64,000 nt of DNA, from the IMG/VR virus record IMGVR_UViG_3300027782_000038. One strand, written 5' to 3'. This document shows, piece after piece, positions 1 through 40,400 of this stretch. Under the pieces are notes generated by a model. That model worked only from the letters and a program-made list of their open reading frames with translations, was not told where the DNA came from and searched no databases. The position numbers and the translations under genes are program-made. How positions within the stretch are numbered: the stretch's first letter is position 1; each line of letters opens with the position of its first letter. Source of the stretch: a virus.

Positions 1-479
1 CCTAAATCACCTCCGCCACCAGAGTCTTGTATAGTTTCTTCTTTTGGTTTTTCTTCTTTTTTAGTATCTAATTTTTTTAGTATTTCTTTATACTTTCTTT
101 TTTCTTCAAGATCAGATTCTTTTTCAAAATTTCTCTCTAAATCATACTTTCTTTTTTTATCTATACCTAAAGTTTTGATAAGACCAAAATATTTGGTTGA
201 GATAGTTGATGCATTATCTCCTGTACGGAAACTTTGTGATGTGCCTGAGGCGACAGTCGTATAGAAGGATGCATCGACTGATCCAACTTTGGTACTTTTT
301 TCTGGTTGTATAGGTTTATTTTTACCAATAAGATTTGGTATTGTTCCAGTTTTCTGGAAGCTATTACCAAGAGCACTTTGAGCCATAGTTTTAGGCTGAA
401 GTTTGGATCCTAAGCTAGTCATTACTGACTGCATAGAATCGGATACTTTTGGTTTTTCATTTTTTTGGGGTAGAATCAT
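1..479 (-). CDS. 5' part of a hypothetical protein running off the window (position fits a tape-measure/baseplate-hub gene)
   Basis: Read by hand: ATG at 479 overlaps the TGA of the upstream ORF (ATGA); MILPQKNEKPKVSDSMQSVMTSLGSKLQPK... stays open to base 1. Function inferred only from synteny. Confidence 0.7.
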   Translation of the reverse strand, partial: MILPQKNEKPKVSDSMQSVMTSLGSKLQPKTMAQSALGNSFQKTGTIPNLIGKNKPIQPEKSTKVGSVDASFYTTVASGTSQSFRTGDNASTISTKYFGLIKTLGIDKKRKYDLERNFEKESDLEEKRKYKEILKKLDTKKEEKPKEETIQDSGGGGDL

Positions 480-661
480 CTTTGTCTTTGCTTAATCTTT
501 TCGTTTTGTTCCTCAACATATTGAATAAGCATAGCAACATAAATGTCACGTTCCCAAGGTATCATATTTTCAAGTTCAAACAAACTATACTTGTGATGTT
601 GTATCATTGAAAAGTTTGTTTTATAGTAATTCTTCAGATTGTCATGACGAAATGTTAGACG
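476..661 (-). CDS. gp51: gp51-like baseplate hub assembly domain (probably the -1 frameshift extension of gp26; internal ATG at 607)
   Basis: Not in the ORF track. Reads RLTFRHDNLKNYYKTNFSMIQHHKYSLFELENMIPWERDIYVAMLIQYVEEQNEKIKQRQR*. HHKYSL..LENMIPWER is characteristic of small gp51 proteins of cyanophage-type T4-likes. Confidence 0.85.
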   Translation of the reverse strand, partial: RLTFRHDNLKNYYKTNFSMIQHHKYSLFELENMIPWERDIYVAMLIQYVEEQNEKIKQRQR

Positions 662-1380
662 AAAAAACTTTCTAGCCCCTCCGCTGTAATTTTATGATCG
701 AATCCACATTTACGACATTTGAATTCTACTTTCTTATTTAACTTAGGTAAATTCTCAAAGAATTCTTCTATCTTTTTAAATTGTTGTTGATTCAAAGACT
801 CAAGAAAATCTACGATTTCACCTGGTTCGGTCTCATTGGCATAAAAGTATTGTTCTCCATCAAAGATACTTTCGACACTTTCAACAATCATATTGAATGC
901 CATATCTGTGGTGTTGTCAAATTTAGTTGAAGAACCTATCACAGAAAATTCTGGATACTTTAATTTTATACTAATTCTGTCAGTTAACTGAATAGAATCA
1001 CTAATTGATTCATCTCTATCAACCTTAATATCTAAAAGGTTAATTTCAACATCCATCATGTTGTTACAGGTTCTATCTTCAACAACATTCTCACAACGAT
1101 ACCTATTCTCTACAATTTCACCAACAGACCTTGCTCGAAGATTAATGAAATAGTATTCAACATCAATAATTGGTAATGAATCTATATCAATATTTTCTGT
1201 CAAGGTACAATTATGTAAAACTTGTTTTATATTTTTCTCAATGGTATCTTTATCATCTGATTCCATTGCCATCAATAAATTCTTTTGTTCTTTGACTAAG
1301 AAAGGTCTAAATCGAATAGTTTTCTTTGATAGTGGTAATTCAAGTTCATAAATTGGTGTATCAATTTTTGGCAAAGCCAT
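655..1380 (-). CDS. gp26: baseplate hub assembly chaperone gp26
   Basis: MALPKIDTPIYELELP..RFRPFLVKEQK, FINLRARSVGE, C-terminal CRKCG and EGLESFF; SD AGGAG upstream. Confidence 0.9.
   Translation of the reverse strand: MALPKIDTPIYELELPLSKKTIRFRPFLVKEQKNLLMAMESDDKDTIEKNIKQVLHNCTLTENIDIDSLPIIDVEYYFINLRARSVGEIVENRYRCENVVEDRTCNNMMDVEINLLDIKVDRDESISDSIQLTDRISIKLKYPEFSVIGSSTKFDNTTDMAFNMIVESVESIFDGEQYFYANETEPGEIVDFLESLNQQQFKKIEEFFENLPKLNKKVEFKCRKCGFDHKITAEGLESFFV
661..682 (-). promoter_or_regulatory. putative -1 ribosomal frameshift signal (GGAGG, 10 nt spacer, T_TTT_TTC)
   Basis: Minus strand reads GCG GAG GGG CTA GAA AGT TTT TTC GTC TAA. Heptamer at 667-661, SD-like GGAGG at 682-678; the -1 frame is the gp51-like ORF. 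Confidence 0.7.
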
Positions 1381-1411: not shown

Positions 1412-1954
1412 TTATGGTAGAACAGGAAAAGCACCTAGTGGAAGGTTTGGTGTTTTTGTCCAATAAGTATATGCAAAAACTACTGTTAACTTGTGGTGAC
1501 CATCCGATGACCAGTCTAAATCTAATTGATTAACTGATATTGGATAACAGTCTATCAAATCTACAGAATATGTTGGATTATTTTGTAAATCATATTGTAC
1601 TATTGTTATTTCAGAAATATAATCTTTTTTATATTTTGGATTAAAATTACTTGATGGAACAACTAATTCCATCCATGAATCGAAAAAATTCTTCTCAGCC
1701 ATATCTCCAGAAACGATGAAGGTTAATGATAAATCATTATATATTGTGTGGTAAGGATATTTTTCAAGTGGATTTGAACCAAATTTTTGTTCTATGGTTG
1801 AAAATGTTCTACCTGGCAATTCAGCCGTTTCGCATCGCAATTTTGAATTTGTTAGTTGCAATCTACCTACTGGAGGTATGAAAACTTCAAACCTATTAGG
1901 TCTGGCCAAATCTTTTGTGAAACTACTCATAAAATCTGAAATATTTGCTGGCAT
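1412..1954 (-). CDS. gp54: tail tube initiator / gp19-fold tube protein (gp54-like)
   Basis: LARPNRFEV, CETAELPG, DCYPISV..LDLDW..LTVVFAY; paralogous to the gp19 at 48889. Confidence 0.7.
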   Translation of the reverse strand: MPANISDFMSSFTKDLARPNRFEVFIPPVGRLQLTNSKLRCETAELPGRTFSTIEQKFGSNPLEKYPYHTIYNDLSLTFIVSGDMAEKNFFDSWMELVVPSSNFNPKYKKDYISEITIVQYDLQNNPTYSVDLIDCYPISVNQLDLDWSSDGHHKLTVVFAYTYWTKTPNLPLGAFPVLP

Positions 1955-17477: not shown

Positions 17478-20400
17478 ATGCCTCTGAATTTCAATGTTGA
17501 TCCTTATTATGACGACTTCGATCCAGCAAAAAATTATCATCGAGTTTTGTTTAAACCGGGCTTTGCTGTTCAGGCTAGAGAATTAACTCAGGCACAGACT
17601 ATATTACAAGATCAAATTACTAAGTTTGCTGATAACATCTTCAAGCAAAACTCGCCTGTTACTGGTGGACAAGTAACTACAAACTTAAATTGTAATTATA
17701 TAAAATTACAATCAACTTACAACAATTCTTCAATTGATGTTACTGATTTTTTAGGTAAATTAGTTCAAGATGCAACGGGAACAATTCTAGCTCGTGTTAT
17801 TGCTGTGGCGGCTCCTACTGGTACTGAAGGTGTTGGTGATCCACCAACTCTGATTGTTTCTTATACATCAGGAGAGCATTTTTCAGACAGTGATGTTATT
17901 TATGATACTGGTTCAAACTTAGCTGCTCAAGCTGTTATTTTGGATGCAACTGGTCAAAGTTCTGTGGTTTCTATTGCTCAAGGCGTGTTTTATATCTCAT
18001 CTAACTATACCAGATCAGATGGTATAGTTATTTCAAATGGTACTTTTGTTCAGGTCAACCCACAAACCACTATTTTAAGTAAGTATAGCAAGTTACCTAG
18101 TTTACGTGTTGGTCTAAACATTACAGAAACAATTCGAGATTATGTAGATGACACATCACTTCTGGATCCAGCTATTGGGGCATCAAACTATCAAGCACCA
18201 GGTGCAGATAGATATCTTATTTCACTAGCGTTGGAGACTCGTCCATTGTCTTTGGGTGATGATGACGGCTTCATTGAATTACTTCGTATTACAGGTGGTA
18301 ATATTGCCAAACTGGTAGACGGTTCAGTTTATAACGTCATTGATGACTATTTTGCTAAACGTGACTATGAAACGAATGGTGATTATGTTGTTCAAGATTT
18401 CAAATTAACACCAAGAACAAATTCCGCAGATAGTTCAAACAATACATATCTTATGAGTATTGGTAAAGGTCTGGCATATGTTCATGGTTATAGAACAGAA
18501 AATCCAGATCAAGTTGATTTATTAACTAATAGAGCAAGAACCACAGAATCACAAGGTAACAATCCCATATTCATGAATTATGGTAGTTATTTTTATGTTA
18601 ACACGGTTCGTGGTGCAAATGGTTCTTCAGGATTAAGTAATACCACAACAACACAAACAATAGATTTACACTGCGTACCAGTAGCCAACGTTAACGTGGC
18701 ATCAGCAATTGCATATAGTTCAACTCTTGTTGGTTCTGGTTATATTCGTGGTTTAGTATACGATACCAACACAACTGATGCAGCAAACACCTTTGTTTAT
18801 AAAGCATATGTTTACAATGTACAAAACAACACACTGACAGGAAATGCAGTATCCGCAACAGCCAATACTATTACATTACCAAGTACATTCTCCGTGGCTA
18901 ATTCAGCGTATGTTGGTGTGGATATTTCTATCACTTCTGGAACTGATGCTGGCGATTTTAAAACAATCACTGCTTACAATGGAGTAACAAAAACAGCAAC
19001 AGTAAATGCTAATTGGATTGCAACACCAGATACATCATCAAATTTTGCTTTGAATTTTGGCATTAAAGATGTTGATATTTTAATGACAGCAACAAAATCC
19101 TCATACCCCGCACTTATTACTGGAACCGCATCAATTGATCCAATAAGTCGTGTTGGTGGTATCTCTGCTGGTGCAACAGTTTTACAAAACCCAATTACAC
19201 CAGAATTAATATTTCCTCTTGGTAATCCTTATGTTTCGAATTTAACCGACACATCATACACAACAACGAGAGTATTTAAAGGTGTCTCTTTCTCTGGTTC
19301 GCCAACTGTTACTGGAACATTAAGTCTTTCTTCTTATTCTGGTGCAATTAAGCACATTGGTTCAGGAGTATTAAGTCCAAGTACAGTCAAACAAAACTTT
19401 ACTGTTATTGTAACAAATGCCGGAACATCTACTTTTGCTGTTGGCGATTTAGTTAACTGGTCAACAACAGGTAGAACAGTTACAATAACTTCAGGTGCAA
19501 CTACATCTGTAGCAGATATGTCAGTTGCCACTTCTGCTATTGGTGGTGGATTTACAGCAGATGTAATTGTCACAGTTCAAGTTTTAAATGGTGATAATAC
19601 AAGTTATGTATTAAAAAATAAAAATTTAGTTAATGCAAATACAACAGTTGTTAATGTAAGCGGAACAACTGTAAACACAAATATTTTTATTGATCAAACA
19701 TTAGGTCAAGTTTATATTACAAAAGCAGGATTAGTTTCTCCTGGTTTAAAACAAAGTTTATATATTTCTGATGTAAAAAATGTAATTAAAATTATAGATA
19801 CACGTAGTGCGAATACTTCAGCTAATGTAGCAATGTTAACAAATCCATCTCATGATATCACGAATAATTACATTTTTGATAATGGACAAAGAGATAACTT
19901 TTACGACCATGCAACATTAACGTTACGTTCAGGCGCACCTCAACCAATAGGTAATATTCTTGTTCTAATGAATTTCTATCAACATTCAAGTACTGTTGGT
20001 GGTTATTTCAGTAAAATGTCGTACATTGATATAGCGACAAGTCCAGAAAATTACAATCAGATTCCAAGATATACAAGTACAAATGGTACAACATATACAC
20101 TCCGTGATTGTGTTGACTTTAGACCAACAAGAACAAACGCAACGACAGCATTTGCTTTTGATTCTGGTGATGTAGCATTTTTACCTATAGATGGTTCAAC
20201 ATTTATTGGTGATTATGCTTATTATCTTGGTCGAAAAGACCTTTTAGTATTAACAAAAGATAAGAGTTTCAATATAATTCAGGGCGCACCTTCTTTACAA
20301 CCAATACTTCCTCCAACACCTGATGGTGCATTATTAGTTGCCAATTTAAATCTGGATCCATATACAGCATATTTACCTTCAGAAGTTCCTAATTCTGGTC

Positions 20401-23400
20401 TTCCAGCTAATCTTTCGATTGATAAAGTTCAGCATAAACGATATACGATGCAAGACATTTCAGGTCTGGAAAGTCGTATCAATCAAGTTGAATATTATAC
20501 AGCACTCAATCTATTAGAACAAAATGCACAATCATTGCAGATTTCAGATGCACTAGGATTGAATCGTTTCAAAAATGGTATTTTGGTAGATGACTTCTCA
20601 AGTTATGCGGCAGCAGATACACTTAACCGTGACTATTTTGCCACCATTAACAAAAGAACAAGACAAATGACCGCAAGTCAAAATGTTAATAATTTCCCAT
20701 TGAAATCATTATTACAAGCATACAATATGGGAGCATTGGTTCCTTCGGCAGCAGCGGCACAAAATATTGCAATCAATCAAGATGGTTATGTTAGTTATTT
20801 TACACTACCATATACCACATCAAATGTGATCACACAAAAAATTGCCAGCAGAGATACAAATATAAATCCATTTGCTATCCCTAGGTCTGAGGGTGTGATT
20901 CAATTAACACCAAATACAGACAACTGGGTAGATAAAGACTATGCGCCAGCATTACTGATCACGGACCCAAACTTACAAGTCTATAGAGCGTCTAATAGCG
21001 TTAACATATTGAGCGTTGGTGATTGGCAAACTATTTCATCCACAAGCACATCCGTTTCCTCATCATCACAATCATCATCTAGTACACAACAAGAAAATCA
21101 TAACTGGTCACAAGATTGGGGATTTGGTGCAGGTATTGGTGTTCAGTCAGATTCAACAACTACAACTACAACAACATTTACATCAACATCATCATTACAA
21201 AGTCAAAATAATATATTAGGTCCATACAGTAGAATTGGCAATACCTATGCACTTAATAATGGATACATTACCGATATTAGTATTTTGCCTTGGATTAGAC
21301 CACAACAAGTTGTTGCTAGAACAAAGGGACTTTTGGTTAATACTACATTACATACGACATTTGACGGTATTGATGTTGATAGATATGTAAGAAATCCAAA
21401 TATTATTGAATTGACAAATGTGAATTTGAGTAATGGTGGATTCAAAGAAGATGATGTGATTGGTTATTATACAGGTGGTGCATTTAAGAGTACAGCAAGA
21501 GTTGTCGGTGTTTATGTATATCCTAACACAGTCAATTCAATAACACAAACCGCAAACACAAGATTATATGTTGCTGCTGATGGTTATTCATCAACATATT
21601 CAACTACAGGTGTTATTCAAAATGCTTTATTTAATGCATCTGGCGTTTATCAATCAAATACTGCGGCAGGTACAATAGTTTCAACAAAGCACGTTGCTGC
21701 TGTAGTTAAGGGTGTTTCTGGAAATACAATAACACTCTCACCATTGTCATCTTCAACTGACATTTATACAGGTAATACAATTCAAATCACCGCAGGTGTT
21801 GGTAGTGGTCAGTCGTATATTATCAACTCTTATAACGTAGCAACAAAAAATGTAACAGTTACCTCAGCATCAGTATCGTGTGCAAACGGAGACTTTTATT
21901 CGGTTGGTGGATTCAAATCAGATGAAACTGGTAGTTTCTATGGTATATTGAATATACCTCCAAATGCTTTTCATACAGGCGAGAGAGTATTCCGTGTTGA
22001 CAATAACACAAACGGAAATGCAAATACAGCGACAACTTATGCTCAAAGTACTTTCTATGCATCTGGATTATCTACAAAAGTTCAAGAAATTGATTTTGGT
22101 GCATCTCCATCTGGCGCAAAAGGAACTTTCACAAGAACACAACAAAGAACTGTTGTAAGTACATCCGTATCTGTAAGTGAAGATACTTTTTCATCATTGT
22201 CACCATACGATCCAGTTGCACAAACATTTATGGTTGATGTTGAAAATTATCCCAATGGTGTATTTTTGAGCGACATTAAAGTTTTCTTCAGATCAAAACC
22301 AACAATTGTTAATTCACCAGTTACATTATCAATTGTTGGAACATTAAATGGTTATCCAAATGGTTTAACTTTAGACCATTCTGTAGTAACATTAACTCCA
22401 GATCAAATTAAAACATCTGAGAATCCACATTATTTGGATAACACAACATATACTCAATTTAAGTTTGCTGTTCCTGTATATATTCAACCAGATGTAATGT
22501 ATGCATTCATTCTCAGATCATCGAGTAATGAATATACGATGTGGACTGCGGCTAATGGCGATACAGCAATTCCATCGTCTGTTAAAAACTTACCGACAGA
22601 TCCAACTCCAACAACAATCACTAAGATTTCTACTCCTCCATATACAGGTTCTTTGTTTATATCACAGAACTCACAAACATGGACAGCGGAACAAAATCAA
22701 GGATTGATGTTTACTGTTGATAGATGTGTGTTCAATACATCAGTGACACCAAGCATTCAGTTTGTTGTTCCTAATGGATTGCCACAAAGATCAATGATTG
22801 ATACTTCAATTGCTTATTTTGAAAATTCAAATGTGACATCCAATGCAGTAACTACAGTAACAAGATCAAACGTTGTGGCTGATGCTTTTAATATCACAAC
22901 AACAGATTTCTTACCAAGCACAACAGGTATTGGATATTCTTACAATTCAACATTGGCTTCTGGTTCGGCAGCAGGACTAAGAAATGTTAATCCAGGTAAA
23001 TATGCCACATCAATGTCTGATAACATATATCTGAGTGATGGATTAGGTGAACGTATACTTGCTGCAAATTCAAATACCTCGTTCTCGTTATATGCACAAT
23101 TATCATCAGTTGATCCTGCTGTAAGTCCAATCATTTCTGATGCAGGATTGTCGGTTTATTCTATTCAATGGAATATCAATAACTGTGAATTGTCAAATAG
23201 TTTAATTACTATTGTTAATGGTGGCACTGGTTATGCAAATGGTAATGTAATAACTGCCAACGTAGTTGTTTCGGCACCAACAGGAAGAAATGGTGAGCAA
23301 GCATATGCTATAGCTAACGTGGTGAATAATGCAGTTTCTAGTGTAACGTTCACTTCAGTCGGTTCTGGGTATGTTACAACACCAACAATCACTATACTGG

Positions 23401-23882
23401 GAAGTAACACATCAAGGGCTAATATTATAATTACTGGTGAAACTTCTAGTTCTGGTGGTCCTGCTATAGCTAAATATATGACAAAGAAAGTTGTGTTAAA
23501 TGCTGGATTTGATTCTGGTGACTTAAATGTGTATATGACAGCATATCGTCCTATTAACACAGATATCCTTGTTTACTACAAAATATTAAGTAGAACAGAT
23601 ACACAAAGTTTCGATGATGGTAGTTGGCAATTAATGACCATGACAAACAGTTCTGATACACTATATTCGCAAACAAGATCAAACTTGTATGAATATACTT
23701 TCTCACCAGGAACAAATGGTGTAGATCAGGGTTATGTTTCTTACACTAGCACGAATGGTCAATCATATACAAACTTCAGTCAATTCGCAATCAAAATTGT
23801 ACTAACATCAACTGATCATACATATACACCTTTCTTAACGGATTTAAGATGTATTGCTTTACCTTCAAATACTAATTTATAG
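17478..23882 (+). CDS. large baseplate/tail protein, VrlC / DUF4815-like
   Basis: NVDPYYDDFD..KNYHRVLFKPG.AVQARELTQ.Q, APGADR, KRYTM.DI..LE.RI..VEYYT.L, RFKNG.LVDDF, DPVAQTF. Confidence 0.85.
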   Translation: MPLNFNVDPYYDDFDPAKNYHRVLFKPGFAVQARELTQAQTILQDQITKFADNIFKQNSPVTGGQVTTNLNCNYIKLQSTYNNSSIDVTDFLGKLVQDATGTILARVIAVAAPTGTEGVGDPPTLIVSYTSGEHFSDSDVIYDTGSNLAAQAVILDATGQSSVVSIAQGVFYISSNYTRSDGIVISNGTFVQVNPQTTILSKYSKLPSLRVGLNITETIRDYVDDTSLLDPAIGASNYQAPGADRYLISLALETRPLSLGDDDGFIELLRITGGNIAKLVDGSVYNVIDDYFAKRDYETNGDYVVQDFKLTPRTNSADSSNNTYLMSIGKGLAYVHGYRTENPDQVDLLTNRARTTESQGNNPIFMNYGSYFYVNTVRGANGSSGLSNTTTTQTIDLHCVPVANVNVASAIAYSSTLVGSGYIRGLVYDTNTTDAANTFVYKAYVYNVQNNTLTGNAVSATANTITLPSTFSVANSAYVGVDISITSGTDAGDFKTITAYNGVTKTATVNANWIATPDTSSNFALNFGIKDVDILMTATKSSYPALITGTASIDPISRVGGISAGATVLQNPITPELIFPLGNPYVSNLTDTSYTTTRVFKGVSFSGSPTVTGTLSLSSYSGAIKHIGSGVLSPSTVKQNFTVIVTNAGTSTFAVGDLVNWSTTGRTVTITSGATTSVADMSVATSAIGGGFTADVIVTVQVLNGDNTSYVLKNKNLVNANTTVVNVSGTTVNTNIFIDQTLGQVYITKAGLVSPGLKQSLYISDVKNVIKIIDTRSANTSANVAMLTNPSHDITNNYIFDNGQRDNFYDHATLTLRSGAPQPIGNILVLMNFYQHSSTVGGYFSKMSYIDIATSPENYNQIPRYTSTNGTTYTLRDCVDFRPTRTNATTAFAFDSGDVAFLPIDGSTFIGDYAYYLGRKDLLVLTKDKSFNIIQGAPSLQPILPPTPDGALLVANLNLDPYTAYLPSEVPNSGLPANLSIDKVQHKRYTMQDISGLESRINQVEYYTALNLLEQNAQSLQISDALGLNRFKNGILVDDFSSYAAADTLNRDYFATINKRTRQMTASQNVNNFPLKSLLQAYNMGALVPSAAAAQNIAINQDGYVSYFTLPYTTSNVITQKIASRDTNINPFAIPRSEGVIQLTPNTDNWVDKDYAPALLITDPNLQVYRASNSVNILSVGDWQTISSTSTSVSSSSQSSSSTQQENHNWSQDWGFGAGIGVQSDSTTTTTTTFTSTSSLQSQNNILGPYSRIGNTYALNNGYITDISILPWIRPQQVVARTKGLLVNTTLHTTFDGIDVDRYVRNPNIIELTNVNLSNGGFKEDDVIGYYTGGAFKSTARVVGVYVYPNTVNSITQTANTRLYVAADGYSSTYSTTGVIQNALFNASGVYQSNTAAGTIVSTKHVAAVVKGVSGNTITLSPLSSSTDIYTGNTIQITAGVGSGQSYIINSYNVATKNVTVTSASVSCANGDFYSVGGFKSDETGSFYGILNIPPNAFHTGERVFRVDNNTNGNANTATTYAQSTFYASGLSTKVQEIDFGASPSGAKGTFTRTQQRTVVSTSVSVSEDTFSSLSPYDPVAQTFMVDVENYPNGVFLSDIKVFFRSKPTIVNSPVTLSIVGTLNGYPNGLTLDHSVVTLTPDQIKTSENPHYLDNTTYTQFKFAVPVYIQPDVMYAFILRSSSNEYTMWTAANGDTAIPSSVKNLPTDPTPTTITKISTPPYTGSLFISQNSQTWTAEQNQGLMFTVDRCVFNTSVTPSIQFVVPNGLPQRSMIDTSIAYFENSNVTSNAVTTVTRSNVVADAFNITTTDFLPSTTGIGYSYNSTLASGSAAGLRNVNPGKYATSMSDNIYLSDGLGERILAANSNTSFSLYAQLSSVDPAVSPIISDAGLSVYSIQWNINNCELSNSLITIVNGGTGYANGNVITANVVVSAPTGRNGEQAYAIANVVNNAVSSVTFTSVGSGYVTTPTITILGSNTSRANIIITGETSSSGGPAIAKYMTKKVVLNAGFDSGDLNVYMTAYRPINTDILVYYKILSRTDTQSFDDGSWQLMTMTNSSDTLYSQTRSNLYEYTFSPGTNGVDQGYVSYTSTNGQSYTNFSQFAIKIVLTSTDHTYTPFLTDLRCIALPSNTNL

Positions 23883-23889
23883 GTTAATT

Positions 23890-24111
23890 ATGGCATTAGT
23901 TCAAGTTAAAGGTACAACTTTCTACCGTGATACAGAATCCATGGGTCTCGTTAATAGAGACCGCAGTGGGTTGGATGATTACAATATGAAGCGCAAGATG
24001 TTGATCACTCAAAAAGATGAAATAAATAGAGTTAAGACGGAAATCGACAGCTTAAAACAAGATATGGTAGAAATAAAACAACTCCTGTTAAAACTAATGG
24101 ATAAAGAATAA
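23890..24111 (+). CDS. small coiled-coil protein following the VrlC-like gene
   Basis: Likely start is ATG 23890 (MALVQVKGTTFYRD..), with AGGT upstream; C-terminal heptads. Confidence 0.75.
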   Translation: MALVQVKGTTFYRDTESMGLVNRDRSGLDDYNMKRKMLITQKDEINRVKTEIDSLKQDMVEIKQLLLKLMDKE

Positions 24112-27100
24112 TGGCAAATACAGTCTCAAGTCTAAGTTTCGCTAACACCTTTGGTGATTGGGTTGTTTTGACCAATTCTCTGGCAAAAGAGAATAACGAT
24201 TTTGCAGCAAATAATTTTACAAAACCAATAGGTACACTATATCTAAATGATCCTACTTTAGGTCTACAAGTCGCAAATAATGCAATTGTTGCTGGTCAAC
24301 TTCAAGTTCAAGGAACTGGTTCATCGGCATATGTACAAAACGACTTCAGAGTTGATCGACAAGTATCATTTCAGAACACAGCATTAAGTTTAACAACATT
24401 TGGTCAAGCGAACATTGGTGGACCATTACTCGCATTAGGATCTAATACAGGTCTTACTGTATCAAATACTGCAAACATTGGTGGTATTATAAATGTTACT
24501 GGTGCAACTAGATTGGGTAATACCTTATCTGTTGTTGCAAACGCAACTTTTGCTAACTCAGCAACAATTACTAATAGTACGATAACAAACCAAGTACAGG
24601 CTAATACTGGTGTCAATACTGCAACTTTAGTTGTTACAGGAACTTCATATACCAATCAATTACAGGCTAATACTGGTGTCAATACTGCAACTTTAGTTGT
24701 TACAGGAACTTCATATACCAATCAATTACAGGCTAATACTGGTGTCAATACTGCAACTTTAGTTGTTACAGGAACTTCATATACTAACCAATTACAAGCT
24801 AATACTTCAACAAATACTTCACTTGCAACAGCAAATACATTGAATGTTATTGGAACTGGATATTTTAGTGTTTTACAATCCAATACCTCAACAAATACTG
24901 TTCTAGCTACAGCCAATACACTGAATGTTATTGGTATGGGTTATATTAACCAATTACAATCCAATACTTCAACAAATACTGTTCTATCTACAGCCAATAC
25001 ACTGAATGTTATTGGAACAAGTTATACTAATGCAATCCAAGCTAATACATCATCAAATACAAGTTTAGCTACAGCCAATACACTGAATGTTATTGGTGTG
25101 GGTTATATTAACCAATTACAATCCAATACCTCAACAAATACAAGTTTAGCTACCGCTAATACGTTGAATGTTATTGGAACAAGTTATACTAATGCAATCC
25201 AAGCTAATACATCATCAAATACAGGATTAGCTACCGCTAATACGTTGAATGTTATTGGAACTGGTTTTTTCAATCAAGTACAAGCTAATACATCATCAAA
25301 TACAGGATTAGCTACCGCTAATACGTTGAATGTTATTGGAACTGGTTTTTTCAATCAAGTACAAGCTAATACATCATCAAATACAGGATTAGCTACAGCC
25401 AATACACTGAATGTTATTGGTGTGGGTTATATTAACCAATTACAATCCAATACCTCAACAAATACTTCTTTATCAACAGCCAATACATTAAATGTTATTG
25501 GTGTGGGTTATATTAACCAATTACAATCCAATACCTCAACAAATACTGTTCTAGCTACAGCTAATACGTTAAACGTTATTGGAACTGGATTTTTAAATCG
25601 TGTACAAGCCAATACTTCAACAAATACAAGTTTATCAACCGCTAATACATTAAATGTTATTGGAACTGGATTTTTAAATCAAGTACAAGCTAATACATCA
25701 TCAAATACAGGATTAGCTACAGCCAATACATTAAATGTTATTGGAACTGGATTTTTCAATCAAGTACAAGCTAACACTTCTGTTAACACATCATCAATTA
25801 CAGTTTCTAATAACGTTGCGACAAATAATGTAGTTTCAAATACTGTATATGTTACTGGAAACATCACTACTGCTAATATTGTTACAACTGCAACAATTTC
25901 AACAGCAAACTTATTTGTAACGAATAACGTCAATACGGGTAATGTCAATACAACAAATACTGTATATGCATCTAATGTTGTTGTTACTGGAACTAATGCA
26001 ACAATAACTGCGCCTTCAATAACAACATCAGGTCCAGCAACAATTGGTGGGGCTTTAACAGCATCCTCAGCAACGGTTACAGGAAGTTTTATTATAACAG
26101 GAAGTACGGTCTATAATTCACCATCATTTACTGTGAATTTAAACGGTGCGACAAGTGGAACAGCAAATTCAGAGTATTCTGTTTATAGACCATTGAGTGC
26201 ATCAGATATAGTAGTCGGTGGTAGATATATCATCATTAGTAATACTGCAACTAGTGGATCTAATAACTTTACAGGAATTGGTGCATCAAGTAATGCAAAT
26301 GGTACAATATTTACAGCAAACGGTACACTTACAGCAAACGGTGTAATTGTAGCATCTAATGCATCATTACTGTGGTACGAATCTGGTGATTATTGGACAG
26401 TTAAAGATGTAAACGTAGCAAACACATTCTATCGAATATTAGATTCGGGTATGTTGTCCGATAGTGTATTGTCTACATCATCAAATGTTGCAACATCAAA
26501 ATCAGTAAATACTGCATACTCGTTTACTCAAACCATTGCAACTCAAGCAAATACATATTCAACTAGTATTTCTGTAGGAATTGGTACCCAAGCAAATACA
26601 TATGCTGATTCAGTTGGTACTAGATCAAATACTTTTGCTATAACAATTGGTACTCAAGCAAATAGTTTTGCTATAACAATTGGTACTCAAGCAAATACAT
26701 ATTCTGATTCAGTTGGTACTAAATCAAATACCTATGCACAATCTATTGGATCACAAGCTAATACATACTCTACAAGTATCTCTGTAGGGATTGGTACTCA
26801 AGCAAATACATATGCTGATTCAGTTGGTACTAAATCAAATACTTTTGCTATAACAATTGGTACTCAAGCCAATACATATGCTGATTCAGTTGGTACTAAA
26901 TCAAATACATATGCACAATCTATTGGATCACAAGCAAATAGTTTTGCAACTATCATTGGTACCCAAGCAAATACATATTCTACAAGTATCTCTGTAGGAA
27001 TTGGTAATCAAGCCAATACATATGCTAATACAGTTGGTACTAGATCAAATACCTATGCACAATCTATTGGATCACAAGCAAATAGTTTTGCTATAACAAT

Positions 27101-28217
27101 TGGTACTCAAGCAAATACATATTCAACTAGTATTTCTGTAGGGATTGGTACTCAAGCAAATACATATGCTGATTCAGTTGGTACTAAATCAAATACTTTT
27201 GCTATAACAATTGGTACTCAAGCCAATACCTATGCACAATCCATTGGATCACAAGCAAATACATATTCAACTAGTATCTCTGTAGGAATTGGTAATCAAT
27301 CCAATACCTATGCACAATCCATTGGATCACAAGCAAATACATATTCAACTAGTATTTCTGTAGGGATTGGTACTCAAGCAAATACTTTTGCTATAACTAT
27401 TGGTACTCAAGCAAATACATATGCTGATACAGTTGGTACTAGATCAAATACTTTTGCTATAACTATTGGTACTCAAGCAAATACATATGCTGATTCAGTT
27501 GGTACTAAATCAAATACTTTTGCTATAACAATTGGTACTCAAGCCAACACATATTCAGATTCAGTTGGTATTAAATCTAATACATATGCACAATCTATTG
27601 GTACCCAAGCAAATACATACTCAACTAGTATTGCTGTAGGAATTGGTAATCAAGCTAATACATTTTCTACAAATTACACAAATACAGCTAATGCATTTCT
27701 ACAAATATTTGCAGCAAATGCAACATTATTAACTACTGGAACTATACCTTCCGCTAGATTACCATCATCTGGAGTAACTGCCGGAACATATGGTGGACCA
27801 AACGGAAGCAATACAGCCATGTCAATAGTTGTAGATGCAACAGGACGTGTTACAGCAGCATCTAATGTCACAATCATTCCAACATCACTTATTGGTACTG
27901 GATATTCACCTAATATTAACTTAACTGATGCTGCAACCATCACTTGGGACACATCATCAGGTCAAGTTGCCACATTTACGTTTGTATCAACCAATCGCAC
28001 AATAGGCGCACCGACTAACCTAAGTAACGGTGCATTCTATGCTTTGGCTGTGATTCAAAACGGTGGATCAAACACCTTGACTTGGAACTCAGTATTTAAG
28101 TGGGCGGCGGGTGTTGCACCTACACTCTCAACTGATGCGGGTGCAAAAGACTACTTCACATTCCGATCTGACGGTACAAACTTGTATCAGCAGGGCATTG
28201 CACAGGGGGTGGCATAA
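24111..28217 (+). CDS. long repeat-rich tail fibre (1368 aa)
   Basis: N-terminal ANTFGDWV..TN motif; 22-, 27- and 11/15-aa repeats; C-terminal domain shared with the 3100-aa fibre. Confidence 0.8.
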   Translation: MANTVSSLSFANTFGDWVVLTNSLAKENNDFAANNFTKPIGTLYLNDPTLGLQVANNAIVAGQLQVQGTGSSAYVQNDFRVDRQVSFQNTALSLTTFGQANIGGPLLALGSNTGLTVSNTANIGGIINVTGATRLGNTLSVVANATFANSATITNSTITNQVQANTGVNTATLVVTGTSYTNQLQANTGVNTATLVVTGTSYTNQLQANTGVNTATLVVTGTSYTNQLQANTSTNTSLATANTLNVIGTGYFSVLQSNTSTNTVLATANTLNVIGMGYINQLQSNTSTNTVLSTANTLNVIGTSYTNAIQANTSSNTSLATANTLNVIGVGYINQLQSNTSTNTSLATANTLNVIGTSYTNAIQANTSSNTGLATANTLNVIGTGFFNQVQANTSSNTGLATANTLNVIGTGFFNQVQANTSSNTGLATANTLNVIGVGYINQLQSNTSTNTSLSTANTLNVIGVGYINQLQSNTSTNTVLATANTLNVIGTGFLNRVQANTSTNTSLSTANTLNVIGTGFLNQVQANTSSNTGLATANTLNVIGTGFFNQVQANTSVNTSSITVSNNVATNNVVSNTVYVTGNITTANIVTTATISTANLFVTNNVNTGNVNTTNTVYASNVVVTGTNATITAPSITTSGPATIGGALTASSATVTGSFIITGSTVYNSPSFTVNLNGATSGTANSEYSVYRPLSASDIVVGGRYIIISNTATSGSNNFTGIGASSNANGTIFTANGTLTANGVIVASNASLLWYESGDYWTVKDVNVANTFYRILDSGMLSDSVLSTSSNVATSKSVNTAYSFTQTIATQANTYSTSISVGIGTQANTYADSVGTRSNTFAITIGTQANSFAITIGTQANTYSDSVGTKSNTYAQSIGSQANTYSTSISVGIGTQANTYADSVGTKSNTFAITIGTQANTYADSVGTKSNTYAQSIGSQANSFATIIGTQANTYSTSISVGIGNQANTYANTVGTRSNTYAQSIGSQANSFAITIGTQANTYSTSISVGIGTQANTYADSVGTKSNTFAITIGTQANTYAQSIGSQANTYSTSISVGIGNQSNTYAQSIGSQANTYSTSISVGIGTQANTFAITIGTQANTYADTVGTRSNTFAITIGTQANTYADSVGTKSNTFAITIGTQANTYSDSVGIKSNTYAQSIGTQANTYSTSIAVGIGNQANTFSTNYTNTANAFLQIFAANATLLTTGTIPSARLPSSGVTAGTYGGPNGSNTAMSIVVDATGRVTAASNVTIIPTSLIGTGYSPNINLTDAATITWDTSSGQVATFTFVSTNRTIGAPTNLSNGAFYALAVIQNGGSNTLTWNSVFKWAAGVAPTLSTDAGAKDYFTFRSDGTNLYQQGIAQGVA
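24590..25775 (+). repeat. coding tandem repeats: three 66-nt units, then about twelve 81-nt units
   Basis: QANTGVNTATLVVTGTSYTNQL x3, then QANTSSNTGLATANTLNVIGTGFFNQV-like units. Confidence 0.9.
26530..27665 (+). repeat. coding repeats of 33-nt and 45-nt units (11/15 aa)
   Basis: IGTQANTYADS / VGTKSNTFAIT / IGSQANTYSTSISVG, shuffled in mosaic order. Confidence 0.9.
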
Positions 28218-31098: not shown

Positions 31099-31452
31099 AT
31101 GCCAGCAGGATACAGTAATTTATATCTTAATCAGAATGAAACATTCATTTCACAGTTAACATTAACTGATTCTAACGGTGTTCCTTATAACTTAACTAGT
31201 TTTAACATAGCTAGTGCTGCTAGACGGTCCTACTATTCTGCAAATGCCACAATCAATTTTGTGGTTTCTATCATTAATGCTAATAATGGTATTGTTCAAT
31301 TGTCAGCCAACGCAGCAACAACAGCAAATGTACCTGCGGGTAATTTAGTATACGATGTACTAATTCGTAATACAACATCAAATAATATAACAAGAGTACT
31401 GGAAGGACAAATTTTTGTTTCGCCAGGAGTTACCTCTGTTAGTTCCGTATAA
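31099..31452 (+). CDS. small fibre adaptor protein (BppU-N-like Ig fold)
   Basis: NLYLNQ..F, GIVQLS..A.TT.N..AG..VYDV, RVLEG.I.VSPGVT; sits directly before the giant fibre. Confidence 0.6.
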   Translation: MPAGYSNLYLNQNETFISQLTLTDSNGVPYNLTSFNIASAARRSYYSANATINFVVSIINANNGIVQLSANAATTANVPAGNLVYDVLIRNTTSNNITRVLEGQIFVSPGVTSVSSV

Positions 31453-34400
31453 TGCCTGCGATCATCGTCAATCCGGTTAATGCAATAAATGTCCGTGTTA
31501 ATCAAGGAGATCAGGTAACTGTACCAAGTTCAAATTTAAGTATAATTGATGTTCGTGTTAATCAAGGAACTCAGGTAACTGTACCATCAACATCAATATT
31601 TTCTGGTGCAGTAAATGTACAATCTCAAGTTGATGAGATATATGCAATTGCAAATTCAGCTTCACAGACAGCAAATACAGCATACTACTTAGCTAATAAT
31701 ATATCTACAACAGCAAACAATGCTTTCTATACTGCAAACTTAGCTTCACAGACAGCAAATACAGCATACTACTTAGCTAATAATATATCTACAACGGCAA
31801 ATTCAGCTTTACAAACAGCAAATGCTACAACTGTATTAGCACAATCTAATTATAATTTTAGCAATACTGTTAATGTATTTACGCAAAGTGCCTATAGTGT
31901 TGCGAATTCAGCTTCAGCTAATACTATAATCACTCAGGGTATAGACAACACACAAAATACAAATATTTCTAGTGTAACCAATTATGCTGCATCAGGATTT
32001 GCTAAAGCAAACTCAGCTAATATACTTGCACAATTGGCCTTTGATAAAGCCAACACTGTTAATGTTTATGCTTATTCAGCAAATACATTCTTACAAGCCA
32101 ATGACGTTATCACATTAAGTACTGCACAGACATATACAAATACAACTAATACGGCTATGAAAGCGTATGTTGACCAAGCCAACACCGGATTAAAGTCATA
32201 TGTAGACCAAGCCAATACAGGCATGACTTCTTACGTGCTTTCTTCCAATAATGCTGTAACTGGTTATGTAACATCATCTAATACGGCTATGAAAGCCTAT
32301 GTTGATCAAGCCAATACTGGAATGGCTTCATATGTGTCTAGCAATGTAACATCAGCCAATACTGCAATGAAGGCATATGTCGATCAGGCTAACACTGGTC
32401 TGAAATCGTATGTTGACCAAGCCAACACCGGTATGGCATCTTATGTTTTAGTATCCAATAATGCGGTGTCTGCTTATGTGACTGCTGCTAATACGGCAAT
32501 GAAAACATATGTAGACCAAGCCAATACTGGAATGGCTTCATATGTTCTATCGACAAATAATGCTGTATCAGGATATGTGACTTCATCCAACACAGCGATG
32601 AAAGCTTATGTTGACCAAGCCAATACAGGCATGGCATCATATGTTCTATCGACAAACAATGCTGTATCTGCTTATGTGACAGCAGCTAATACTGCAATGA
32701 AGGCCTATGTCGATCAGGCTAATACTGGTCTAAAGTCATATACAGATGCAACACATTATGCTAAAACTGGTGGTGCCATAACTGGTTCAGTTTCAATTTC
32801 GAATGATCTAACAGTTTCAGGCAACTTATTTGTAAATGGTACAGCAACAACAATTAATACTTCATCAATAGTATTAAATGATCCTTTGCTTTATTTGGCA
32901 AATAATAATTTTATTTCAGATTCAGTAGATATTGGTTTTGTTGGACATTATAATTCAACAACAAATGCTCATACTGGTTTAATTCGTGATCCTAATCTGA
33001 AAGAATACTTATTTTTTCAAGGTTATACACCAGAAATTGAAGCTAATAATTTAATTAACATAGCAGATCCATCATTTGCATATGCTAACGTTTATGCAGG
33101 TTACTTTAAAGGTAATGTTGTTGCTAGTACAGTGAGAACAAATGGAATAGATGTATTCACATATATAACAGCATCTTTTGATAAAGCCAATACCGTAAAT
33201 GTTTTTACGCAATCTGCATATACTACAGCTAATACAGCAAACTCCAAAGCACAAGGTGCATTTGATTTAGCCAATACTCTAACTGGTGGATCATCAATTG
33301 ACGGATATGCTAGACAAACTGCAAATTCAGCTTTTGATAAAGCCAATACAGTAAACGTATTCACTCAAAGTGCATACTCACAAGCAAACTCTGCAAATAT
33401 ATTAGCACAGGCAGCATTTACTCAAGCTAATACAGTCAACACCTATTCTTACTCAGCTTATAGTACAGCAAATACGGCTGCTGCAAATACTGTGGTTTTA
33501 CAATCAGTAAATGATGTACAAAACACTAACATATCAGCAGCATTTGATAAAGCAAACTCTGCAAATATGCTAGCACAGGCAGCATTTACTCAAGCCAATT
33601 CAGCTAACATATTAGCACAGGCAGCATTTACATTTGCCAATACAGTTAATGTATATTCTTACTCATCTTATAGTACAGCAAACTCAGCACAGTCTAATAC
33701 AATTGTACTACAAGGAATAAATACAACCCAAAACACCTGGATTAGTGCTAATGCTGTGTTTACACAATCGGCATTTACTCAAGCCAATTCAGCTAACATA
33801 TTAGCGCAAGGTGCTTTTACATTTGCTAATACAGTTAATACATATTCTTACTCAGCTTACAGCATAGCAAACTCAGCACAGTCTAATACGGTAATAACCC
33901 AAGGTGTAGATGTTACTCAAAACACCTGGATTAGTTCCAATGCAGTATTCACACAGTCTGCATACAATACCGCTAACACTGCTAATAATACAGCAAATAT
34001 TGCTGCAACAAACATAACAGTATTACAATCAGTAAATATCGTACAAAATACCACTATTGGTGCATCTTTCGACAAAGCAAATAGTGCAAATATTTTAGCA
34101 CAAGCATCATTTACATTTGCTAATACAGTCAATACATATGCTTATTCAGCAAACACCTTCTTACAAGCTAATGACGCTACTACTCTAAGTACTGCACAGA
34201 CATATACAAATACAGCTAATACGGCAATGAAGGCTTATGTCGACCAGGCTAATACTGGTATGGCTTCTTATGTTTTGGCATCAAATAATGCTGTAACTGC
34301 TTATGTGACAGCAGCTAATACTGCAATGAAGGCCTATGTCGATCAGGCTAATACTGGAATGGCATCGTATGTACTTTCTACAAACAATGCTGTATCAGGA

Positions 34401-37400
34401 TATGTAACTGCTGCTAATACGGCAATGAAATCTTATGTTGACCAAGCCAATACTGGAATGGCTTCATATGTTTTAGTATCCAATAATGCGGTGTCTGCTT
34501 ATGTGACAGCAGCTAATACGGCAATGAAAGCATATGTAGACCAAGCCAATACTGGAATGGCTTCTTATGTACTTTCTACAAACAATGCTGTATCAGGATA
34601 TGTAACTGCTGCTAATACTGCAATGAAAGCATATGTCGATCAGGCTAATACTGGAATGGCATCGTATGTTTTAGTATCCAATAATGCGGTAACTGGATAT
34701 GTAACTTCTTCCAATACCGCAATGAAAGCGTATGTAGATCAAGCTAACACTGGTCTAAAGTCATATGTAATTCAAGCCAATACAGGCATGGCTTCTTATG
34801 TACTAGCCTCTAATAATGCCGTAACTGCTTATGTGACTGCTTCTAATACGGCAATGAAATCATATGTAGACCAAGCTAATACAGGCATGGCATCGTATGT
34901 GTCTAGCAATGTAATTACTGCTAATACTGCAATGAAGGCCTATGTCGATCAGTCTAATACTGGAATGGCATCATATGTACTTTCTACAAATAATGCTGTA
35001 ACTGCTTATGTAACTGCTGCTAATACATCCATAAAGGCTTATGTTGACCAAGCCAATACAGGGTTGAAGTCTTACGTTGACCAAGCTAATACAGGCATGG
35101 CTTCTTATGTACTTTCTACAAACAATGCTGTATCGGGATATGTGACAGCAGCCAATACTGCAATGAAAGCATATGTCGATCAGGCTAACACTGGTCTGAA
35201 ATCGTATGTTGACCAAGCCAATACTGGTATGGCTTCATATGTTTTGGCATCAAACAATGCTGTATCCGGATATGTAACTGCTGCTAATACTGCTATGAAG
35301 GCGTATGTCGATCAAGCTAATACTGGTCTTAAATCATATACCGATGCAACTCACTATGCTAAAACTGGTGGAACTATTTCAGGATCGGTATCTGTCACAA
35401 ATGACTTAACTGTATCTGGTAATTTAATTATTAATGGTATTTCAACAACTATTAATACTTCATCAATTGTCGTAAATGATCCATTGATATTTCTTGGAAA
35501 TAATAATACTATTTCCGATACTGTTGATATTGGTATTATAGGACATTACAATGCAACACAAAATGCTCACACTGGTGTTTTTAGAGATGCTACTCTAAAA
35601 GAATGGTTTTTCTTCCAAAATTACACACCAGAAATTCGAGCTAATAATTTAATTAATATTGCTGATCCTACTTTTGTCACAGCTAACGTATATGGTGGAT
35701 TCTTTAAGGGTAATCTTGTAGGTAATACTGCAACAGTTGGTGGTATTGAACTTGGTGCATATAGTCAAGCTGCTTATAGTACAGCAAACTCAGCACAGTC
35801 TAATACTGTAGTACTTCAAGGTGTAAATACTACTCAAAATACTTGGTTAAGTTCTAATGCAGCATTTACACAATCAGCATATACATTTGCTAATACGGTT
35901 AATGTATTTACTCAATCGGCATTTACTCAAGCAAATGCTGCTAACATATTAGCACAAGGTGCATTTACATTTGCTAATACTGTTAACACATATTCGTATT
36001 CTGCTTATAGTACAGCCAATTCAGCACAATCAAATACTGTAGCACTGCAAGGCGTAAACACATCTCAAAACACCTGGATTAGTTCTAATGCAGAATTTAC
36101 TCAATCAGCATATACTTTTGCTAATACTGTAAATGTATTCACTCAATCAGCATTTACTCAAGCAAATACAGCAAACATATTAGCACAAGGTGCATTTACA
36201 TTTGCTAATACTCGGTTAGCGAATACAGGAACCTCAATCACTGTCAATGGTTCATCTCAATTAATTATTGCTAATACACAACCTTCAACAAGTAATGTTA
36301 CTGGTGCTTTGGTTATAAGTGGTGGTTTAGGTGTTGCTGGTAACGTTAAGGTAACAGGAACAAACAATTATTTTGCTGGTAACGTTGCTATTGGATCAAC
36401 CGAATTTATATCTGGTGATATACTGTCAATATATCATGCTACGGCTAGTAATCCATTCATAAGTGGAGATTTGAACACAAACTTAACTGTTCATAGAAGT
36501 TCCACAGATGCCGTTGGTCCAAATATGGTGCTTAGAAAATCCAGAGGAACTATGTCCTCGCAAACATCAGTTATAAGTGGTGATGTGCTTGGTACATATT
36601 TTTTTAGCGGTTATAACGGATCTAGCAATTCAAATGTAGCTCATATTAGAGGTACTATTGGTACATTTACTAGTAATACTAATATCAGCAGTTATGTATC
36701 CGTTTTCACATCTCCAGGAGGTACAGCAACACCTTCAGAAAGTATGCGAATTGCTGGTGGAACAATTTCTCTAGGCGCAGCGCCCGGCTCAGAATCCCTG
36801 CGTGTCACGCCTATTGCTAGTGCGGTAAATTTTCTTGAGGTGTTGGGTGCAAGCACAGGCGTATCTCCGGTTCTACAGTCAACTGGCTCAGATACTAACG
36901 TCAACGCAGTATTTGCCACTAAAGGTACGGGCGCACATTTATTTAGAACAAATGGCAACACTGCCAATACACAGTTTCAAATATCCCACTCAGCCTCAGC
37001 TGTTAATTACCTACAAGTGTCGGGTGCGGCTACAACTGGCGCACCTTATTTATTCTCTACTGGTACTGACACAAATGTAGGTATGCAGGTCTCATCAAAA
37101 GGCACTGCGTCAATATCATTTTTTACAAACACTTTTGCACAGGCTCAATTCAGCATCGCCCACACAGCTTCAGCAGTTAACTATCTGCAAGCAACAGGTG
37201 GGTCTACGGGTAATGCGCCGTTACTTACTGCTCAAGGTTCTGATGCAAATATAAGTTTTACGATGCAAGCAAAAGGCACTGGTAGTTTTTATACCTTTGG
37301 CGCTGGTATGTATTATTACAACCTAGCGTCCGCCCCACAATTTGCGGTGACAAGCACAGCCTCAGCAGTTAACTATTTGCAAGTTACTGGTGGTGTATCA

Positions 37401-40400
37401 GGCGGCAGCCCCGTAATTAGCGCACAAGGTACTGATTCAAATATCAATCTTGTATTTGACTCAAAAGGCAGCAACGGACACTTGTTTAGAACTAATGGCG
37501 GTAACCAAACTCAATTCTTTGTAGGACACACTGCCTCAGCGGTTAACTATCTGCAAATAAACGGTAGTGCAACAGGTAATAGAACAAACTTTTACGCTCT
37601 CGGTTCTGACGCAAACGTAGGTATAAATTACAATGCCAAAGGCGCTGAGTACCATGTGTTTACAGCTAACTCTGGTTACGCAAACTTTGTTATTGCGCCT
37701 ACTGTTAATGCCGTAAATCAAATATATGTGACTGGCGGCGCTACGACTGCGGGTGTGAACTTTTCTGCCCAAGGTAGCGATACAAATATCTTCATCACTT
37801 ACGACGCTAAAGGCACAGAGGCGCATAGCTTCAGAACAAACGGTGGTCTGCAACAATTCCGCATTGCACCGACAGCCTCCGCTGTTAATTATTTGCAAGT
37901 AAACGGCAACATAACAAGTGCAGCACCTTTTATGTCTGCACAAGGCTCCGATGCAAACATTGGAATGAGTCTTGTACCAAAGGGTGACAATCCTGTTCAG
38001 GTTTTAGGGAACGGTCAAGCCGTATCCAGCATTAGTACGTCAGGCGCACTTGGCAGTGCGTTGCTTGTTTCGGATACGGCTGGCGCAGCGGGTAACGGTG
38101 GCTCTGTTGTATTTGGTGCGGCATCAGGCTCATGGCGTTTTGCGGCGATTAAGTCTTATGTAACAAACGGCGCATCAAACTCACAAGGCGATTTGTATTT
38201 CTTAACTCGTCGTAATGCTACAGACGCTAACCTTACGCCTTCTATGCAAATTACATCAAGCGGGGCAGTGTCTTTAGGATATGCGTCTGCGGCATCACAA
38301 CCATCTTTACTTGTCACGCCTGTTGCCAGTGCTGTGAATTATGTTGATGTATGGGGTGGGGCAACAGGAACAGGTGGACGCATTTTTGCAAAAGGTTCTG
38401 ATACAAATATTTCTCTTGAATACATTTCAAAAGGCGGGTCGCCACATACGTTTTACACCGGAACCTCTTCGGCTGTTCAGTTTCGTGTTGCCGACACAGC
38501 CTCCGCAGTTAATTACCTGCAAGTAACAGGCAGCGCAAGCACAACGCCAACCCTTTCAGCACAGGGGTCTAGTGCAGACGTTGATATAGTATTGACACCG
38601 AAAGGTACTGGTGGATTACGGTTTACAGGACCACTTCTACCAAACAACTTGGCAGGCACATCGGGACAAGTCTTAACTTCGGCTGGTGCAGGTGCAGTGC
38701 CAACATGGACATCACCAGCCGTAGGTACGGTTACAGGTGTTACAGCAACGTCTCCTGTTGCATCAAGTGGTGGCGCAGCACCTGTCATCAGTTTAAGCGC
38801 CGCATATGGTGACACAACAAACCCATATGCTTCAAAGACAGCTAACTTTGTGCTTGCAGCACCAAATGGATCCGCAGGAGTTCCTACATTTAGAGCAATT
38901 GTTGCTGCCGATATTCCCACACTTAACCAAAACACAACTGGTTCAGCAGCCACCTTAACAACCATTAGAACCCTTTGGGGACAAAACTTCAATGGTAGTG
39001 CTAACGTTACTGGTGCCATTGCTAGTGTAACAACATTATCAATGAATAACCAGTTGACCAATAGTTTAGCTACTGGTACAGCACCATTTGTAATTACTTC
39101 GACAACAAGAGTTGCAAACTTAAACGTGGCAACTGCTGGTACTGCTGACACCGCCACGACTGCTACAACAGCAACTAGCACACCATACCCTGTATTTTCT
39201 GACGATGCAGTATCAAAAGACAACATTACTACTAGAACAAATAGTGGTTTTTATGAATCTAGCACTGGAACTTTAGCAGAAGGATGGCCCACAGATAGTG
39301 GAGGTTGGCATCATTTGTTATCAACAACACATACTAATGATGCAAATTATTATGCTATGCAATTATCCTCTAGATTTGATACTCAAGATTTTTATTATAG
39401 AGCAACCAATGGATCCGGCACTACTGCTTGGTCAAGAGTTCTATTGAGTACGAATTTTAATAGTTTTTCTCCAACCTTAACGGGAACGGGAGCCAGTGGA
39501 TCATGGGGAATTAACGTAACAGGCTCTGCTGCTACAGCTACAACCGCAACAAACCAATCTGGTGGAACTGTTAGTGCTACAACTGGTTCTTTTTCAGGGA
39601 ATATAGCTTTACCTTCGGGTGCAGGAACAAACGCAATTAAAGCAGGTACGGGAGATGGCGCTTCTTTTACAACATATAATTTAAAAATTAATTCTTGGTA
39701 TGGAATTGGTTTTGGTGATTATCAAGATTTAGCTACTGTTAAAGCCTATATTGATTGTCGAACAGGTAATTACGGAACAAGTGGTCAATTTGTTTCTACA
39801 GTTGCTACTGGCACAGCACCATTTTCAGTTGCTTCTACTACTAGAGTGGCAAATCTAAACGTTGCAACTGCTGGTACTGCTGACACCGCAACAACTGCCA
39901 CAACTGCCACAACTGCTACAACCGCAACAAACCAATCTGGTGGAACTGTTAGTGCTACTACTGGCTCGTTTAGCGGATTATTAATAGGTGCCTCATCAGC
40001 CGCAACAAACGTTAATACTGCTAATGACACTGGATCTTTTTCTGTTAGAGGTAATACCAGCACAATCGCTTCAATGTCCTTCCATAGAACTGGTGCATAC
40101 GCAATTAACATGGGATTAGGTACGGATAATATATTCCGTATTGGGGGATGGTCGGCTTCAAACGATTGTTTGCAATTAACAGGCACAGGAAACTTAACAA
40201 CTCTGGGTACCATAACATCCGGCGGGAGTTTAACAGTATTAGGAACAACATCACTAGGAGCCGCAGCAGGATCAGAATCCCTACGTGTCACGACTGTTGC
40301 TAGTTCAGTTAACTACCTGCAAGTAGAAGGAAGTGCAAGCACTACACCAACACTTTCTGCACAAGGTTCTGGTGCAAATGTTGATATAATATTGACACCA

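Follow-up and report, generated by a model that had tools for sequence, protein, structure and literature searches.

Introduction

The 3′ end of a gp26-like gene in an uncultured T4-like phage raises the question of whether a single locus makes two tail assembly chaperones, one short and one long, by means of a programmed ribosomal frameshift. The stretch of DNA analyzed, hereafter the window, consists of 64,000 nucleotides of the IMG/VR record IMGVR_UViG_3300027782_000038. It is part of the genome of a T4-like phage, has a G+C content of 36%, and carries baseplate, terminase, sheath, tube, portal, and capsid genes, while the public sequencing runs that contain it are freshwater metagenomes.

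For T4-like phages, Vladimirov, Gautam and Davidson (Virology 2022) reportedly described tail chaperone genes, their poly-T frameshift signals, and a two-gene alternative, in work that is said to be bioinformatic; frameshifting is reportedly conserved in several T4-like groups, and T4 itself is said to use genes 26 and 51. Of two papers that cite this study, one (PMC12846349) does so for the occurrence of poly-T −1 frameshift signals in “TAC-N genes of T4-like phages” and the other (PMC10885494) for separate short and long genes in some T4-like phages. The initial annotation of the window had named no earlier description for this group; its novelty did not stand, given that the idea was published in 2022 and that the GenBank record of phage Abraxas labels gp26 and gp51 alike as “tape measure protein assembly chaperone”. 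The locus considered here is a further example of an arrangement already described for T4-like phages, with the same protein family and the same short/long logic, and what it possibly adds are the statistics on the Shine-Dalgarno (SD) sequence and on the hairpin, along with one fused record. No experimental demonstration of the shift, in cyanophages or in T4-like myophages, turned up in the literature searched.

The locus and its neighbors

On the minus strand, the genes follow each other in the order head closure gene, DNA end protector, tube-fold gene, gp26-like gene, gp51-type tail, and an ORF that runs off the end of the window; vibriophage phi-Grn1 and Rhizobium phage RL38J1 have an identical order in their annotations. 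The gp26-like gene (1380-655, minus strand) encodes 241 residues and is assigned to the short chaperones (TAC-N, the equivalent of lambda gpG) by matches to PF12322 (E = 3.6e-60) and phrog_150 (E = 1.2e-65).

The gene upstream of it (1412..1954, minus strand, 180 residues) had been described as tube-like, and it does have the tube fold (PF06841, E = 4e-8), but it probably encodes a gp54-type baseplate tube initiator and not the major tube protein: the gene in this position is annotated “baseplate tail tube initiator” in both phi-Grn1 and RL38J1, and a second gp19-family gene adjoins the sheath gene at 48889-49440.

On the other side, the start codon of the next ORF (1..479, minus strand) overlaps the stop codon of the tail (ATGA). 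A family search with the 159 residues that this ORF encodes up to the window end gave no match; the ORF resembles a 528-residue, lysozyme-bearing protein at the same position in the relative L007 (E = 9e-11), the gene at this position in the relative L057 carries an SLT domain, and Cr30 has its annotated tape measure gene one small ORF beyond the corresponding place. The product is predicted to be the tape measure protein, or more broadly a probable tape-measure or hub protein. The hydrolase domains of the gene that follows the locus vary, being a phage lysozyme in L007:3408-4994 and SLT in L057:3417-5354, and both sit behind long low-complexity linkers.

The junction between the two frames

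The gp26-like ORF ends with GCG GAG GGG CTA GAA AGT TTT TTC GTC TAA, in which the heptamer T_TTT_TTC (661..667, minus strand, read from 667 to 661) stands in the X_XXY_YYZ register expected for a tandem slip on two Phe codons, and a single sense codon separates it from the zero-frame stop TAA (655..657, minus strand). An internal SD-like GGAGG (678..682, minus strand), the candidate stimulator, lies upstream with a spacer of exactly 10 nt. Reading in the −1 frame meets no stop between 691 and the TGA at 478-476, and the tail proper (476..661, minus strand), with 61 codons beyond the heptamer followed by this TGA, encodes a gp51-type C-terminal domain (TAC-C, the equivalent of lambda T; phrog_634, E = 4.2e-27), so a tandem Phe-Phe slip would yield a predicted fusion of 240 + 61 = 301 residues. 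The ORF, the heptamer, the GGAGG, the −1 frame, and the 301-residue fusion first reported are all confirmed in the DNA, and so is the remark that the SD is built of codons unusual for this genome: across the ORFs of the window, GCG, GAG, and GGG account for 8%, 16%, and 4% of the codons synonymous with them. The 20,765 codons of the window contain five in-frame copies of T_TTT_TTC, and only the copy in the gp26-like gene is located at a gene end.

The junction is crossed without differences by one DNA contig, possibly from the source sample, and by one contig of a low-depth RNA library; because it is also common to the relatives, it is not an assembly error. Public runs were examined as contigs, which drop rare variants and carry no expression information. 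Just past the gp26 stop there is also a three-codon zero-frame ORF (ATG ACA ATC TGA; 645-634, minus strand), which is probably incidental, as it stems from His-Asp codons conserved in the −1 frame.

Conservation of the phase and of the slippery site

Relatives were gathered from IMG/VR (80 close ones of 64-76% identity and about 155 more, obtained with cyanophage and Stenotrophomonas phage queries) and from 15 cultured phages. The tail lies in the −1 phase at 242 of the 243 loci that have both parts; this holds for all 78 close relatives considered (78/78) and also for 11 cultured phages of cyanobacteria, Vibrio, Delftia, Stenotrophomonas, Caulobacter, Rhizobium, and Salmonella. T_TTT_TT persists at 173 of the 176 distinct junctions, in the exact form T_TTT_TTC at 167. 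Since the relatives share ancestry, these counts are not independent events and are given in place of a P value. The junction alignment proposed at the outset thereby finds both heptamer and phase conserved, and the relatives taken as a whole display neither a variable phase, nor a missing heptamer, nor a conserved SD and ATG for gp51, the three patterns that had been named as contrary to a frameshift.

These numbers bear on the possibility that TTTTTTC is merely a by-product, a conserved Phe-Phe end being encoded in AT-rich DNA, with the tail untranslated or a relic. It is true that Phe-Phe is conserved as protein, T2 gp26 included, and that TTT makes up 72% of the Phe codons in the window, but T2 encodes the same Phe-Phe as G_TTC_TTT, the second Phe codon is the rarer TTC in 167 of 173 junctions, the GC-rich phages PhiW-14 and DLP6 retain the heptamer, and the tail is under purifying selection (next section). 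The base 5′ of the two Phe codons is a T supplied by AGT, TCT, AAT, GAT, GCT, GGT, or ACT, i.e., by seven codons for five amino acids. The codon usage of the individual genes predicts the pattern in 24 of 69 representatives (about 35%), a figure to be read with the sampling in mind, as these representatives (<80% identical) were all drawn from the 173 pattern-bearing junctions, the exceptions in the whole set being three; internal Phe-Phe pairs of the same genes have the pattern in 2 of 71 cases. We regard a by-product as extremely improbable. Moreover, five representatives have a −1-frame stop directly 5′ of the heptamer, so their −1 frame can be entered only at the heptamer or later.

Evidence for translation of the tail ahead of its first ATG

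The first ATG, GTG, or TTG of the tail frame is the ATG at 607 (605..607, minus strand), which lies inside the conserved domain and is poorly kept among relatives. Its anti-SD energy of +1.6 kcal/mol corresponds to no pairing, in agreement with the initial claim that it lacks an SD. An SD-like stretch of −4 kcal/mol or better precedes 47% of the window genes, as against 16% of random sites, which indicates that the host reads SDs; the absence of an SD alone proves little.

The 17-codon stretch that separates this ATG from the gp26 stop has a pN/pS of 0.14 among 42 close relatives, alike to the value of 0.15 for the tail codons downstream. It varies mainly at the third positions of the −1 frame and contains no stop in any of the 42 sequences, and the other two frames are closed there in all of them (42/42). 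The column of the ATG itself reads ATG in 30, ATA in 10, and ATT in 2 of the 42, and an ATG or GTG occurs within the 17 constrained codons in only 7 of the 42. This codon-level pattern indicates that ribosomes read the tail before they reach that ATG, and the conserved domain consequently begins where no start codon is kept.

The same data weigh on the reading that GenBank annotation adopts for most cultured relatives, in which the tail forms a small independent gene (“gp51”) that has a start codon of its own or is reached by reinitiation past the gp26 stop. Many marine relatives do have an ATG one or two codons past that stop; however, this column is Phe, Leu, or Val in others, has no SD, and falls within the stem of an 11-bp hairpin described below, the annotated starts differ between phages, and this phage has no ATG, GTG, or TTG before 607, just as its close relatives seldom have an ATG or GTG there. 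A separate gene would, in addition, require neither a fixed phase nor a fixed heptamer, and we consider it very unlikely. Nor does the 64-kb window contain a full-length gene of its own for the long form, as in the two-gene arrangement of T4; the tail is a −1 frame devoid of a start. What is found instead is the configuration of lambda G/GT: a second ORF without its own start, which begins within the last part of the first at a constant frame offset, and a conserved slippery heptamer in the X_XXY_YYZ register ahead of the stop.

Signals flanking the heptamer

The SD segment of this phage pairs with the anti-SD at −10.0 kcal/mol, a value attained by 0.4% of random 15-mers. Among the 69 representatives, GGAGG occurs within the 22 nt upstream of the heptamer in 29, and in 28 of these at exactly 10 nt, when synonymous shuffles predict 4.5. 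The motif coincides with a conserved Glu-Gly that constrains where it can lie, and the Glu codon there is GAG in 47 of 63 cases, compared with 27% in the rest of the genes, and a paired test on anti-SD energy gives p = 1.6e-9; the excess holds for the freshwater group (11/24) as well as for the marine one (15/36). The expectation of a conserved upstream SD is hence borne out as an enrichment (28/69 at 10 nt against 4.5 expected) but not as a universal trait, since over half of the relatives have a weaker SD or none. Known SD spacings for −1 shifts are 9-14 nt, and the internal SD of E. coli dnaX lies 10 nt ahead of its slippery site (PMC5009743). As in dnaX, the SD here falls within 9-14 nt upstream. 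It is selected beyond the protein constraint and forms a real but optional signal with a predicted stimulatory role.

Downstream of the heptamer, no structure was detected in this phage (z +0.6, −2.9 kcal/mol), and neither a hairpin nor a consensus structure in its close freshwater clade (mean z −0.2). The other relatives have a 3′ hairpin, with a mean z of −2.7 versus control regions near −0.3 to −0.7. Across 61 marine junctions, an 11-bp stem begins 5 nt past the heptamer and is 89% paired, although this stem was derived from the same sequences on which it was tested, so that the slide control favors it; in the alignment A4 (L104-L241) it occupies the 5-36 nt after the heptamer. One pair of the stem changes on both sides (UA in 23, GC in 22, and AU in 9), coupling the wobble base of an Ala codon to an Ala/Val/Glu change. 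The ATG taken as the start of gp51 in annotations is hidden within the marine stem.

Transcriptional slippage, in which one U is added on the T run, would give the same protein and would likewise account for the conserved run and the −1 phase. The run has only 6 T, against the 9 described for efficient bacterial slippage (PMC5009743), and the preserved codon register, the SD at the spacing of −1 shifts, and the marine hairpin 5-8 nt downstream are signatures of the ribosome. The one low-depth RNA-library contig has no extra base, a weak argument given that contigs drop rare variants. Taken together, this route to the long form seems highly improbable.

Protein families and fold

The initial annotation had described T4 gp51 as a gp26-like domain followed by a C-terminal segment, and this make-up is seen in T2 gp51 (249 residues), where PF12322 covers residues 1-201 and is followed by a segment resembling the tail. 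The tail of this phage aligns to T2 gp51 residues 201-244 (pairwise E = 5e-5), while direct BLASTP of gp26 against T2 gp51 is weak (E = 0.03), so the homology to T2 gp51 rests on shared profiles. T2 gp26 consists of PF12322 alone, its Phe-Phe is encoded by G_TTC_TTT, and gp25 stands behind it; in both T2 and Abraxas, gp26 has lost the heptamer and the tail. The two predicted products of our locus reproduce the T4 gp26/gp51 family, with PF12322 in the short form and a gp51-type C-terminal segment in the long one.

For the fold, an AlphaFold2 model (pLDDT 82) of L144, a 42% identical relative in which the two frames are fused, served as a stand-in for the fusion predicted in the window. Among 48,161 chains, the top matches of its residues 1-95 were 3FGX, 2OB9, and 3KLU, with middling Z-scores of 7.8, 7.5, and 7.3 and an rmsd of about 4 Å over 85-86 residues, unrelated entries having Z of 4.6 or less; all three are named tail assembly chaperones (PMC9603447). 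Foldseek with the whole model returned nothing at E ≤ 0.001, and 2OB9 only at E = 1, and a sequence search of the PDB with the gp26 profile gave no match. The tail of the model, built with no alignment rows, has a pLDDT of 38-72, and its fold matches were disregarded. The structural comparison thus places the modeled N-domain with solved tail chaperones (Z 7.3-7.8) and points to the TAC-N fold typified by HK97 gp13.

Exceptions and a fused record

Four relatives, barely, Kuja, Croc, and D493, have an open −1 tail with only ATT_TTC, CTT_TTC, or CTT_TTT, that is, a run of T4-T5; barely and Kuja are classed as Ackermannviridae, and three of the four are Ackermannviridae or Ackermann-like. In L085, L092, L254, and L255, records of Ackermannviridae and similar phages, gp26 is followed by a −1 tail of 53-63 codons, unannotated or mis-started, and these imperfect slippery sites possibly work by single-tRNA slippage.

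L144 (1201-2094, corresponding to G001:C1:149769-150455 and downstream) has gp26 and tail fused in frame as a 297-residue protein, because its slippery site is 2 nt shorter, through a deletion, than that of its nearest neighbor, L152. The fused gene is the only one with PF12322 in a 236-kb record rated complete. To judge by this single record, an assembly slip and a real variant are equally likely.

Proposed mechanism and relation to known systems

The conserved phase and heptamer, the codon-level conservation of the tail, the SD enrichment, the domains of T2 gp51, and the fold match together support the reading proposed from the outset, and it is very probable that a programmed −1 ribosomal frameshift makes a chaperone pair of the lambda G/GT type. 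Most ribosomes would terminate at the TAA (657-655) and release the 241-residue gp26-like protein, while a minority, with tRNA-Phe in both the P and A sites on U_UUU_UUC, would slip back by one base, with both tRNAs re-pairing on UUU, pass the stop, and add 61 residues to give the 301-residue gp51-like protein; the slip is probably promoted by base pairing between 16S rRNA and the GGAGG upstream. If the analogy with lambda gpG/gpGT holds, the short form may coat the tape-measure/hub protein encoded next door in many copies, the long form may link it to tube or baseplate subunits in few, and neither form would stay in the virion. The shift, its rate, the role of the SD, and the binding partners are all predictions of this model.

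Lambda offers a close parallel, for there, too, a chaperone gene beside tail genes makes short and long products by a −1 shift close to its end (PMC5009743), and the N-domain of the L144 model matches the fold of HK97 gp13 (2OB9). The present protein is nonetheless larger (241 residues), with extra domains past its chaperone-like first 95 residues, the tail of the phage is contractile and T4-type, and the upstream gene is probably gp54-type and not the major tube gene. Similarity in sequence to the lambda proteins is not expected, and the lambda slippery site encodes Gly-Lys, unlike the Phe-Phe of this phage.

With T2 and T4, the locus shares the logic of a gp26 made of PF12322 alone and a gp51 made of PF12322 plus the tail; it differs from the Tevenvirinae and their kin in that they have two divergent genes, no heptamer, and gp25 after gp26, whereas here there is one locus. 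The internal SD at 10 nt recalls E. coli dnaX, to which marine relatives add the 11-bp 3′ stem, although the heptamer and the gene are different, the shift lengthens the product, and this phage lacks the 3′ stem.

The tail matches 546 records, and the small genes annotated as “gp51” or “baseplate hub assembly catalyst” in hundreds of genomes of cyanophage-like phages, Vibrio phages, and rhizobiophages are most likely frameshift tails with false starts. The findings support the view of T4 gp26 and gp51 as the G and GT of T4-type tails, and of gene duplication as what replaced the frameshift in T4. As a more tentative proposal, which we put forward as possible but doubtful, T4-like chaperone loci might use a dnaX-style signal with exchangeable parts (the heptamer always, the SD in about 40%, and the compensatory 11-bp 3′ hairpin in marine phages but not in the freshwater clade) that lets lineages set the ratio of short to long product; on the same proposal, the fused-only form of L144, if real, would represent a phage without the short chaperone and a possible step toward the separate gene 51 of T4.

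Other features of the window

Elsewhere in the window, a 1771-residue ORF without a Pfam match (52278-57593, plus strand) lies among the head genes, past the portal region and ahead of the genes preceding gp23, an unusual site for an ORF of such size. Past the baseplate genes, three plus-strand ORFs of 2134, 1368, and 3100 residues (17478-23882, 24111-28217, and 31452-40754) probably encode fiber or wedge proteins, and the last of them has a 237-codon antisense ORF at 38513-39226. Finally, a 255-residue ORF on the minus strand (44538-45305) opposes the plus-strand block directly before the large terminase gene (45569-47065) and could be a mobile insert.
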